44,350 nucleotides of DNA from contig JAISXO010000046.1 of assembly GCA_031270475.1 (NCBI GenBank), positions 1 to 44,350 on the forward strand, written 5' to 3'. This DNA is from Puniceicoccales bacterium (lineage in GTDB: Bacteria; Verrucomicrobiota; Verrucomicrobiia; Opitutales; LL51). The stretch's first letter is position 1. Each line of letters starts with the position of its first letter. The notes under the pieces are model-generated. The model ran no database searches, was not told where the DNA came from, and saw only the letters and a list, made by a program, of their open reading frames with translations. Of the stretch, positions 17,252-34,743 are shown piece after piece. Position numbers and translations under genes: made by a program.

Positions 17252-18017
17252 ATGATAGTAGTTCGAGATAGTTCAAGTTCAGGTTATTCTTATGCAGATC
17301 TCAATGCTGAAGCGAAAAAAAGAGGTTTGCTCTCAGCAATGATAAAAATTTTTTACTGATACGCCAACGGGATGGTTCTAAAATTACTAGAACTTTAGTT
17401 GATATGTCAAAACTTTCTGAAGCGAGCCGAGTAATCCTTTTATCTAGACTTACTGAAAAAGGAAGCGGTAAAGATATGAAAAACTTGAAAGGAACATTGC
17501 AGCAATATGTCAAACAACTTGAAACAGAAAACACTTCAGGAATAAAGACCATGGAATATAAGAAAGGGGAACTTAGTTCCACTAAAACTGCGAAGGCTGA
17601 AGAACTTCAAAAGATGATGAGCCCATTAATAGTGGAGGAAAAACCGATAACAAAAATAACAGTCGGCTCAATGGAATATGCGATTCCTGCCAAAGCAATT
17701 TCTGAAGCTGGGGTTGATGAGGGTTATGTTGAAAAAGCAATCCAACATGGAAAGCAATTATTAGATGAAATCAATGCTTTATCGGAAGCGATTGAAGGTG
17801 TACCGTATGTTCTCCGATTAAATCGCGCCAAGCTATGGTCGATTTAATGTGGGCATTGGATGCCGAAGCTTGGCAAGTTGATGAACATTATCAGTCGGGG
17901 TCAAGTTCAATGTATGTTTCTGGAACAAAAATATATGATGCATTAGCACATGCAAAACAACCAGATGGAATCTCTTTGTGTTATTCACGTGGAGGCCAAA
18001 ACGACAGTTCCCATTAA
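17252..18017 (+). pseudogene. 5' part of a frameshifted orphan gene (segments 17252-, 17404-17847, 17835-18017), cut at the inversion breakpoint
   Basis: Successive overlapping ORFs in different frames; last segment ends ...GGQNDSSH* and continues in frame as DSSHLQPF on the minus strand from 34743. Confidence 0.6.
18002..18015. repeat. 14-bp inverted repeat, left arm (CGACAGTTCCCATT); inversion breakpoint
   Basis: Exact reverse complement of 34730-34743. Confidence 0.9.
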
Positions 18018-18262
18018 TACATAACTATTTGCATAGCATTTCCGTCCACCCATGGCGTTCTAAAACCTTTTTCTATGTAATAAATTTTCCAACCCTCGGC
18101 GATTTTTTGCGAATTGGATTGGTCTTTTACCTTTTGTGCTTTGAGTTTTATGGCACTCATTGCCGACAGAAGAATCGCTAGTAAAATGCCGATGGCGGAA
18201 ATAGTAAAAACAATTTCAACTAATGCAAAGGATTTACTTTTACTCTTTACGCGTTGCTGCGT
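18014..18262 (-). pseudogene. N-terminal half of a pilin-like gene with ACG in place of ATG and no -10 box
   Basis: (T)QQRVKSKSKSFALVEIVFTISAIGILLAILLSAMSAIKLKAQKVKDQSNSQKIAEGWKIYYIEKG...; nearly identical to 35440-35620. Confidence 0.88.
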
Positions 18263-18334
18263 TGTGAATTAATCGTGTCAAGAGGAAAATACAAATTTTT
18301 TTATTTTTTGGAAATTATTTTTTCGGAAAAAATC

Positions 18335-18396
18335 ACTTGACAAGTACCAGGTTTAGGCCAAGACTAGCAAATAGAGGGTGGGAGCAAGCGGCATGT
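18335..18396 (+). promoter_or_regulatory. 62-bp promoter-leader element, copy C (TTGACA-N17-AAGACT plus leader), divergent from the pilin remnant and reading into lysS
   Basis: Gapless alignment with copies A, B and D. Confidence 0.7.
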
Positions 18397-18465
18397 AAAA
18401 ATTTTTCACCCTTCGATTTCTCTTTACTTTGAAAAAGTTCCATTTAGGGTCCCTCTAGTTTCACG

Positions 18466-32069: not shown

Positions 32070-32978
32070 TTAGGATTTTTTCGATCGCTTCAACAAAAAT
32101 AGATCCAATGCTCGCGAATAATTGCCATCGGTCTGAATATTTAGCAAATCAATGTTGGAACGCTTTAAACGCTCTTGAAAAATTTCATCGTAGCGCCTCC
32201 TATTGCTCGCATAGCCATTTTGAAATTTTTGTTTACTGGTATTAATTTCTAAAATTTCTCCAGTTTCCGCATCTTCAAAAACTACTAATCCCACGTTTGG
32301 CAAAACACGCTCCCTCAAATCATCAATCTTTAAACACACTAAATCATGGCGCCGATTGGTAATCTCAAGGGCATCGGTTAAATGTTTGATGCTCTGAATC
32401 TTGGGCTGAAGAAAATCACTTAATAAAAAGACAATTGCCCGCTTCTTGAGCATGTTATTGATGTATTTGATGACATTGATGAGTTGTGTACCTTTCGATC
32501 GAGGTTCGAAAAAAAGCAGATCGCGGATAATGCGCAAAATATGTTTTCGTCCCTTTGCCGGCGGAACGAATTTTTCTATTCGATCGGAAAATAATAATAA
32601 CCCAACTTTATCGTTATTCCGTGTGGCTGAAAATGCCAGTAAACTGGAAAGCTCCGTCAAAACTTCCCGCTTGCTAAAAAAAATACTCCCGAAATCCAAC
32701 GAAGCACTGACGTCTACAACTAATAAAACCGTTAGCTCCCGGTCTTCTCGGAACTTCTTGATAAACGGACGATTCATCTTCGCCGTAATATTCCAGTCAA
32801 TGGAGCGCACATCATCTCCGGCGATGTACTCGCGTACCTCCTCAAAATCAATCCCTTGCCCCTTAAAAATACTGCGATAGGATCCCATCAAATGCTCATC
32901 GAGGAGGCGATTTGTTCGGATCTCCAGCTGGCGAACCCGCTTCAAAACGTTGCGCGTAATCTCCGATTGCATATCCAT
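32070..32978 (-). CDS. DUF58 family protein (MoxR partner)
   Basis: GIDFEEVREYIAGDDVRSIDWN, DVSASLDFG, LSDF. Confidence 0.93.
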   Translation of the reverse strand: MDMQSEITRNVLKRVRQLEIRTNRLLDEHLMGSYRSIFKGQGIDFEEVREYIAGDDVRSIDWNITAKMNRPFIKKFREDRELTVLLVVDVSASLDFGSIFFSKREVLTELSSLLAFSATRNNDKVGLLLFSDRIEKFVPPAKGRKHILRIIRDLLFFEPRSKGTQLINVIKYINNMLKKRAIVFLLSDFLQPKIQSIKHLTDALEITNRRHDLVCLKIDDLRERVLPNVGLVVFEDAETGEILEINTSKQKFQNGYASNRRRYDEIFQERLKRSNIDLLNIQTDGNYSRALDLFLLKRSKKS

Positions 32979-32986
32979 AGCCAAAA

Positions 32987-33976
32987 TCAGGGAACGGGAA
33001 CGGTATTCAAAATTTTCGAAACAATTGATTCGGAACTAATATTCTCCGCTTCCGCCTCGTAAGTGACGACGATACGGTGACGCAAAACATCCATGGCAAT
33101 TGACTTGACGTCTTGTGGAGTAACATAGCCCCGTCCCTGTAAAAATGCCCAGGCTCGGGAAGCCATCGCCAGCGAAATTGTCGCCCGAGGTGATGCTCCA
33201 AACTCAATGAAATTATCCATTGAAAGCCCAAAATCGCTGGGTTTACGCGTTGCCAAAACAATCTTTACGATGTAATCACAAATTTTTTCATCCATATACA
33301 TTTCATCGAGCAATTGCCGCGAAGCCAAAATCGTATCGGGATTAATGACGGCACGGACGTCCACATTGGGTCGACTCTTCCCCATAGCGCGAAGGATTTG
33401 TTTTTCCTGTTCCATGTCGGGATAATCGATGCTCAATTTCATTAAAAAACGATCCACCTGGGCTTCGGGAAGCGGGTAGGTTCCCTCCTGATCAATGGGG
33501 TTTTGCGTTGCGAAAACGATGAAAGGTGAAGGTAAAGGATGAGTTTGATCGGCAATGGTAACCTGTTTTTCCTGCATGGCTTCAAGGAGCGCACTCTGTA
33601 CTTTCGCCGGCGAACGATTAATCTCATCGGCGAGGACGATATTGGCAAAAATAGGCCCTTTTTTTACATCAAAGGAAGCTTCCCTTTGGTTATAAATCTG
33701 CGTCCCAATGATATCGGCAGGCAGGAGATCGGGCGTAAACTGGATTCGTCGAAAGTCGGCTCGAATCGTTGCAGCCAATGTCTTAACGGTCAAAGTTTTA
33801 GCAAGACCGGGAACACCTTCGAGAAGAATGTGGCCATTGGCCAAGAATCCGACGATCATGCGATCAACCATATATCGTTGACCGACAATGACGCGACCCA
33901 TCTCATCACGCAAAAGTGAGACCCAACTGGAAGCCTCACGAATTCTATTATTAAGTTCGGCTAAATTGTCAGACAT
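32987..33976 (-). CDS. moxR: MoxR-family AAA+ ATPase
   Basis: EGVPGLAKT, RIQFTPDLLPADI, LADEINR, ATQNPIDQEGTYPLPEAQVDRF, GASPRA. Confidence 0.95.
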   Translation of the reverse strand: MSDNLAELNNRIREASSWVSLLRDEMGRVIVGQRYMVDRMIVGFLANGHILLEGVPGLAKTLTVKTLAATIRADFRRIQFTPDLLPADIIGTQIYNQREASFDVKKGPIFANIVLADEINRSPAKVQSALLEAMQEKQVTIADQTHPLPSPFIVFATQNPIDQEGTYPLPEAQVDRFLMKLSIDYPDMEQEKQILRAMGKSRPNVDVRAVINPDTILASRQLLDEMYMDEKICDYIVKIVLATRKPSDFGLSMDNFIEFGASPRATISLAMASRAWAFLQGRGYVTPQDVKSIAMDVLRHRIVVTYEAEAENISSESIVSKILNTVPVP

Positions 33977-34078
33977 AATCTATTCGCTCTTATAACGGTT
34001 CCTTCCAAAAGGTAAATAATAAATTTTAGTGGAAACGAAAAGATTCAGGAAAAAAATTATTTGGGTAGCAAGCTAAAG

Positions 34079-34743
34079 TCAATTATCATTTGGCAAATCG
34101 AAAATTAATTCTTTACCCGATTGATCATGTTCTGCGAAATAAGCGAGCGTCGATTTTCCCTTATTTTCTGGCATCGATTTCCATTCATTTATGGCATCCT
34201 TTTGATAGTCTTTTAGGATCTTTGCCTCTAATTTTTCACTGATGTTCGCTTCTAACATGTTTAAAAAATTTTGAACCTGCTCGCTATTTTTCTCACGATC
34301 CTTTATGTCGGCAATAAATTTAGCTAGCATAGTCAACCCTTGCTTTGAAAGCCAACTGAAGGGATGACTGAAACCCTTTCGGCATAATATTTTGTGAATT
34401 CTTAACAAGCGATGAAACCATATTGGCAATTGAAGTAATTTTTTCATTAAAATCATTTTCTTTTGTTGGCTTTTCCAAACCTAATATTACTTTTTTTACA
34501 TATTGCATACCGTGAGCAACCATATTTCCGAAACCACCAGTACTAAAGCTTTCAAGTTTTACAAAAGTTCGATTCCGCTCAAATCCTGTTTCTTGGGCGG
34601 AAAGTTTTCCAAATAACAAGGTATTTCCACCGTAGGGCAATTTTTCTTCTCTTTCAGCTTCAGCAGATTGTCCTTTTGGGTAAGCATCAAATCCCATTTG
34701 TGTAGCCTTGCTATTCGGAAAGGGTTGTAAATGGGAACTGTCG
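34079..34743 (-). pseudogene. 3' part of the orphan gene begun at 17252-18014 (frameshifted segments 34743-34320 and 34456-34079)
   Basis: Starts DSSHLQPFPNSK at the 14-bp repeat, in the same frame as the end of ORF 17835-18017. Confidence 0.6.
34730..34743. repeat. 14-bp inverted repeat, right arm (AATGGGAACTGTCG); inversion breakpoint
   Basis: Exact reverse complement of 18002-18015. Confidence 0.9.

Follow-up and report, generated by a model that had tools for sequence, protein, structure and literature searches.

A 16.7-kb inversion with a 14-bp inverted repeat at its ends split two now degenerate genes of a Puniceicoccales bacterium

Analysis of the whole of contig C8 (44,350 nt, hereafter the window) of the Puniceicoccales bacterium genome G000 (967,924 bases in 55 contigs, 93% complete) revealed a segment of 16.7 kb that is inverted relative to the related genomes, with one break in a gene here termed gene X and the other in a pilin-like gene. 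Named homologues of the G000 proteins carry the label Puniceicoccales. The inversion is real and derived, since relatives show the opposite arrangement with intact genes. We consider it very probable that a single inversion arose here as a recent, recombinase-independent accident, likely fixed. An exact inverted pair of a 14-bp sequence (the 14-mer) marks the two ends. An inversion running through pseudogenes is ordinary, well-resolved genome decay; the use of its base-exact junction lies in the question whether a short terminal repeat caused the inversion or was made by it, which matters for the continuing rearrangement of small bacterial genomes and for the interpretation of such repeats in inverton searches. 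The features of the locus are as follows.

17326-18015, plus strand: 5' part of gene X, frameshifted near 17810-17860 (a tblastn comparison with the 463-aa G001 protein passes from frame 1 to frame 3)
18002-34743, strand not applicable: inverted segment of 16,742 nt, delimited by synteny with relatives, reversed GC skew and Pfam labels
18002-18015, plus strand: left 14-mer, CGACAGTTCCCATT, native to gene X and encoding the conserved DSSH motif
18016-18281, minus strand: 5' half of the pilin-like gene (prepilin-type, H-X9-DG-labelled family), with the TTGACA box kept and 29 nt comprising the -10-like box and ATG gone
28628-29545, minus strand: XerC-like tyrosine recombinase, a passenger of the inversion and the only one found in the genome
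34082-34743, minus strand: 3' part of gene X, frameshifted near 34345-34360; moxR is next, as in G001
34730-34743, minus strand: right 14-mer, the exact reverse complement of the left copy
34733-34764, plus strand: imperfect palindrome at the right junction, GGGAACTGTC, 12 nt, GAAAGTTCCC, with a 9/10 match
34744-35268, plus strand: 3' half of that pilin-like gene, frameshifted near 35075-35087
35384-36229, plus strand: neighbouring pilin-like paralogue, frameshifted, with the same 29-nt leader deletion

Comparison of gene order gave the direction of the change. By Pfam labels, the segment contains lysS, a miaB-like gene, dxs, an ankyrin gene, tpi, HIT, tgt, a methyltransferase gene, the xerC-like gene, three pilin-like genes, DUF58 and moxR. 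The closed, single-contig genome of G005 runs from greA...ruvB through moxR, DUF58, three pilins, xer, a gap of other genes, the methyltransferase gene, tgt, HIT and tpi to dxs, which is the flipped order of the G000 segment. A co-oriented moxR follows ruvB in 6 of the 13 congeners (G002, G004, G005, G006, G010 and G011), the others having ruvB and moxR on different contigs or separated. Among the 12 lysS loci retrieved, five have lysS pointing away from a neighbouring open pilin-like gene, and gene X or ruvB lies beside lysS in none. The ancestral order, as reconstructed from gene order, was ruvB-X-moxR-DUF58-pilins-xerC-...-dxs. The two pilin-like halves are parts of one former gene: the same 3 of 76 scorable homologues ranked first for the 25-residue variable end of the pilin 5' half and for the 3' half. 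In addition, the GC skew is +0.10 to the left of the segment, -0.062 inside it and +0.17 to the right, and at third codon positions +0.13, -0.138 and +0.22, a reversal which would look the same for a recent event and for an artefact. The reversed inner skew suggests that the segment moved as one block, recently enough to retain its old skew. The preliminary description, made from the DNA letters and their reading frames, had proposed an inversion of about 16.7 kb; the gene X of the relatives, the G005 order, the pilin-half homologues and the reversed skew all bear this out, and synteny with relatives gave the other order with gene X whole.

Inspection of the two ends confirmed the exact 14-bp inverted pair at 18002-18015 and 34730-34743. 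Its identity stops at both edges, with zero extension on either side, and across the 967,924 bases the 14-mer occurs in 2 places at zero or one mismatch and in 14 places at two mismatches. Isolated exact inverted repeats of at least 14 nt and at most 30 kb apart number 250 in G000, 21 of them in the window, and the pair taken alone is within chance expectation. It goes beyond chance because homology to intact relatives breaks exactly at the 14-mer on both sides. The junctions are reciprocal, with short or no homology. Flipping the segment in silico fused the open reading frame (ORF) 17835 in frame, through DSSH, to the minus-strand ORF, and the pilin-like halves met one base short of frame, both as first described. 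A longer inverted repeat, overlooked in that description, lies at 18059-18318 and 35384-35643 (260 nt, 93%) and becomes a direct tandem repeat once the segment is flipped. A primary inversion between these 260-nt pilin repeats was ruled out, because such an inversion leaves gene X unsplit.

Gene X was traced through its relatives. Of 40 relatives, five have homologues of the minus-strand piece at 34742-34323. In G001, all four pieces into which gene X falls in G000 are collinear on one open frame of 465 aa, followed by moxR and DUF58; the gene has 371 aa and stands after ruvB in G008, and has 479 aa in G034. DNA homology stops, for the left piece, at the final base of the 14-mer and starts, for the right piece, inside it. 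The G001 orthologue carries 13 of the 14 bases in the same place, so the 14-mer is native to gene X. It codes for an SxH motif, of which S and H are invariant in all nine gene X homologues compared. Besides the split, gene X carries at least two frameshifts, and it is also decaying in G009 and G010, by other lesions. Seven homologues of protein X were found, those with names being all Puniceicoccales hypothetical proteins. An NCBIfam scan gave no useful match and the best Atlas value was 0.77; comparison of the sequence against the PDB gave zero matches, and the predicted model (pLDDT 72.5) gave zero Foldseek matches at E 0.001, the best VIA Z being 6.1, to a helical bundle. Gene X thus appears, from these searches, to encode a Puniceicoccales-restricted protein outside any known family.

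The pilin-like gene belongs to a family with 1 to 14 paralogues per genome, which regular-expression extraction sampled in part (11 segments, 41 of 108 or 76 of 108 members, depending on the comparison). Over its 5' 234 nt the 35384 copy is 96.6% identical to the 5' half of the split gene. The 29-nt leader deletion is common to both (window 18250-18281 and 35410-35450) and lies between short direct repeats; the -10-like box and ATG are present in the 5229 and C20 paralogues and absent from both leader-deleted copies. Since the deletion is common to the split gene and its former tandem neighbour, the pilin gene had probably fallen silent by the time of the break. The leader-deleted copies may have been duplicated or converted as tandem neighbours after silencing, and could be silent donors or plain pseudogenes. 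Leaving aside the X at the break and a terminal gap, the rejoined pilin is off-consensus at 8 of the 68 conserved columns, against a family median of 1; a count of 8 is reached by 2 of 108 members. The neighbour at 35440-36229 has a one-base frameshift near 35925 compared with its G009 orthologue and lacks the -10 box and ATG. Of the tandem pilin array that had been proposed with this copy, a tandem pilin-like pair before the event therefore stands and the intactness of the 35440 copy does not; the intact sequence ALDMVASYAGT...DPHVY belongs to 5229-6161 instead. The pilin-like gene at 5229 also holds, at window 5287-5381, about 12 copies of ACAATGCA just 3' of the leader ATG. Different 5- or 8-bp repeats stand just after the leader ATG in many paralogues of G000 and its relatives, a pattern which suggests family-wide slippage switching.

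Neither orientation of the segment yields an intact gene, as gene X and the pilin carry further frameshifts and the pilin its leader deletion. The housekeeping genes scanned in the window gave full-length Pfam matches, so the extra lesions would reflect decay rather than read errors. The suggestion that the inversion is probably fixed is supported. The assembly presents one orientation only, and fixation is inferred rather than shown. In the course of events that we propose, the pilin-like gene would already have been silent when one segment was inverted in a single recent event, without a recombinase, through a replication template switch or an equivalent illegitimate join. In this event the 14 nt of gene X at the break would have come to stand at both ends, whether duplicated in full or written over an incomplete match that the pilin-like gene already had, and fixation would be favoured since both genes were dispensable.

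In favour of a programmed and reversible switch of the shufflon kind, with the tyrosine recombinase inside the segment as its catalyst, are the perfect inverted repeat within coding sequences, the recombinase within the segment and the surface protein at the target; moreover, programmed inversions exist without a nearby dedicated recombinase (PMC9881135). Such a switch is nevertheless highly improbable, as flipping back rejoins two pseudogenes, and the reversible switching left open in the preliminary description is accordingly unlikely. The 14-mer occurs in no other pilin paralogue, the further copies searched for there being absent (best 9/14 in 10 loops examined). The pair is not conserved in 16 relatives, which show scattered single matches with one mismatch, one of them the gene X orthologue. 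The enclosed recombinase is of the housekeeping XerC type, as had been described: it is the sole PF00589 match in G000, its best model is TIGR02224 (XerC; 304.5 bits, below the 335 cut-off), and it is syntenic, standing beside the same pilin trio in G002, G004, G005 and G007. A search for resolvases (PF00239) in the 93% complete genome gave 0 matches, and a dedicated invertase beyond Xer was not found there. Using a dif consensus with 3 mismatches allowed, we found 8 matches in the genome and 0 at the junctions, with one weak match at 17148, about 850 nt away. Xer/dif recombination at the junctions was rejected, a dif-like site being at neither. The best dif-like site of G000, a convincing one, is C12:14110, the likely target of the single XerC-like recombinase.

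An assembly or amplification artefact would be conceivable in an assembly of 55 contigs, and it is improbable here: two reciprocal, base-exact junctions stand on one contig, the housekeeping genes of the window have full-length Pfam matches, and 14 nt is shorter than the usual assembly word sizes. An inversion made by a transposase with a 14-bp target duplication, the element being since lost, is highly improbable, although the remains of such an element exist elsewhere in the genome. A frameshifted DDE transposase with terminal inverted repeats lies at C26:2556-3430, with fragments at the ends of C20, C32, C34 and C44, but it has no similarity to contig C8 or to the junctions, which are flush with gene sequence. 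The element is putatively IS982-like, and its target duplications would then be shorter.

Within the frame of a fixed inversion, the 14-mer may be either the cause of the event or its scar. A pre-existing 14-bp microhomology had been taken as the driver; this is not established, as a repeat copied from gene X fits as well or slightly better. We lean slightly towards the latter and give a repeat made or perfected by the event a little better than an even chance; that the repeat was already perfect before the event stands somewhat short of even. Without the 14-mer, the rejoined pilin has an open frame, the junction itself completes a conserved Y, and 44 residues separate KIAE.W from DP, the same span as in P0010 and the C54 paralogue, compared with 45 in the 5229 copy. 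As its removal restores the frame and the exact length of two closest homologues, the 14-mer may be a copy made by the event. If the 14-mer is kept, the frame needs one more base, the loop exceeds that of the nearest homologues by five residues, and M occupies a column where 105 of 106 residues are A, S or G. A three-sequence DNA profile gave 119.1 bits without the 14-mer versus 115.1 with it, and 148 of 407 foreign 14-mers matched the score of the real one; on the family profile, 559 of 1218 foreign 14-mers scored as high.

Several comparisons weigh against a copied repeat. Removal of the 14-mer turns a conserved G into D, whereas the 14-mer with one added base keeps G at a position where 104 of 105 residues are G. 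A four-sequence clade profile gave 196.4 with the 14-mer and one base, the missing base being uncosted, versus 197.0 without it, and on this profile the real 14-mer outscored 1198 of 1218 foreign ones. When the DNA profile was rebuilt with one sequence left out at a time, two of the three runs ended in a tie. Among pairwise protein scores, 8 of 11 favour keeping the 14-mer, the top two differing by at most 2 points in opposite directions. Loop length itself varies, since one of the four clade members has a 7-residue longer loop. Against the account of the inversion as a whole, a true orthologue of the split pilin was not found in 14 genus genomes, the protein set and metagenome contigs, where the best identity was 56-64% and one weak locus was seen.

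The same fixed inversion could instead have been driven by a perfect 13-14-bp inverted microhomology present in both genes, the pilin later losing one base by the junction. We regard this as a serious possibility with a chance appreciably below even; it is a variant within the fixed-inversion frame and takes rather less than half of the weight of that frame. It keeps the conserved G, its T and D residues agree with close paralogues, and the real 14-mer is in the top 1.6% against foreign 14-mers on the clade profile. However, it requires that the loop was longer by 15 nt and that 1 nt was lost independently at the junction, two changes which together equal the repeat length, it leaves M in the A/S/G column, and it gains no advantage on the family profile or the DNA profile. 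A mixed reading, in which a partial pilin match was overwritten by the 14 nt of gene X, would account for both the G and the one-base shortfall. The palindrome at the right junction, for which an equally good match occurred in 27 of 3000 random 40-nt windows, could under prior microhomology be a local inverted duplication of a native core; its partner 12 nt downstream is accounted for by neither reading of the repeat's origin.

Tandem self-matches in G000 number 66, with periods of about 60-360 nt. Among those with a junction overlap of -5 to 20 (n = 18), 12 overlap by 3 nt or less, and joining without long homology is therefore common in G000, which speaks for a repeat made by the event. We suggest tentatively, as a conjecture with the odds against it, that the lineage may have a homology-independent copy-and-switch process which gives rise to its many tandem duplications of 60-360 bp and also to long inversions whose terminal repeats are created by the inversion itself, the 14-mer being a scar. 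If so, short perfect repeats at the ends of bacterial inversions would be no proof of microhomology-driven recombination.

Schofield et al. reportedly described in 1992 spontaneous inversion at short inverted repeats by template switching. Similar to the present case, the template-switch inversions in PMC8604942 have short inverted arms at both ends and no dedicated recombinase. In the yeast REG2 case presented there, an arm of 5 bp became a perfect arm of 16 bp through the inversion itself, which parallels a repeat made by the event here; the spacers given are 2-5 bp compared with 16.7 kb here, and the mechanism is an analogy. The Drosophila staggered-break inversions with inverted duplications (PMC1885836) likewise have ancestrally unique sequence at both breakpoints in inverted form, but are eukaryotic, with gene-sized duplications and end joining; here the repeat is 14 nt, and Ku was not found in the 93% complete G000. 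Drift-fixed inversions in the reduced symbionts Sulcia, Blochmannia, Blattabacterium and Portiera (PMC10333215 and PMC3673631) are multi-gene events of comparable size in small genomes. Compared with these, both breakpoints here are intragenic and base-resolved, and RecA is present in G000. Programmed gene-altering inversions and shufflons such as R64 pilV share inverted repeats in coding sequence and a pilin-like target (PMC9881135), whereas the G000 locus has no homologous cassette exchange, dedicated recombinase or functional product in either orientation. The G000 inversion fails three testable features of programmed inversion, namely a functional orientation, a dedicated invertase and a repeated or conserved site. 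By analogy, it would behave as a spontaneous short-repeat or template-switch inversion fixed by drift. A literature search, with subscription journals mostly outside its coverage, found no paper on the locus or on the rearrangements of this lineage.

The preliminary description had also seen pilin loci as rearrangement hot spots, and this has some support in comparative gene order. The 5229 pilin sits between ABC and rodZ, which are adjacent without a pilin in the five relatives examined, and the block upstream of smpB differs between G000, G009, G010 and G011. These further breaks at pilin-like loci agree with the claim; breaks also occur elsewhere, as synteny is interrupted after miaB and repeatedly in the ruvB-X-moxR interval (G009 and G010). 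This interval has undergone more than one rearrangement. Next to the decaying gene X lie duplicated moxR 5' ends and ruvB 3' ends (L009:10974-12286 in G009:C23, L011:5578-6498 in G010:C28 and G000:C9:936-1178), and on a single contig of G010 two nearly complete copies of moxR point in opposite directions. Elsewhere, an amine-oxidase-like gene between mnmA and a response regulator is inverted in G002 (L056) and G005 (L052) compared with the other congeners.

Other repeats and genes were noted in the window. A 74-nt leader-like repeat at 18335-18408 and 21507-21580, in direct orientation, flanks lysS-miaB and has many copies genome-wide; synteny with G009 ends at its right copy. An Rfam scan of the window gave 0 matches, including for a GC-rich palindromic intergenic repeat family with the core CCCGCGGCGAAGCCGCGGG, found at 27, 2207, 11285, 15069, 24737 and 28467. 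The type III secretion genes sctJ-K-L-N-O lie at 39494-43956 and are kept in the relatives.

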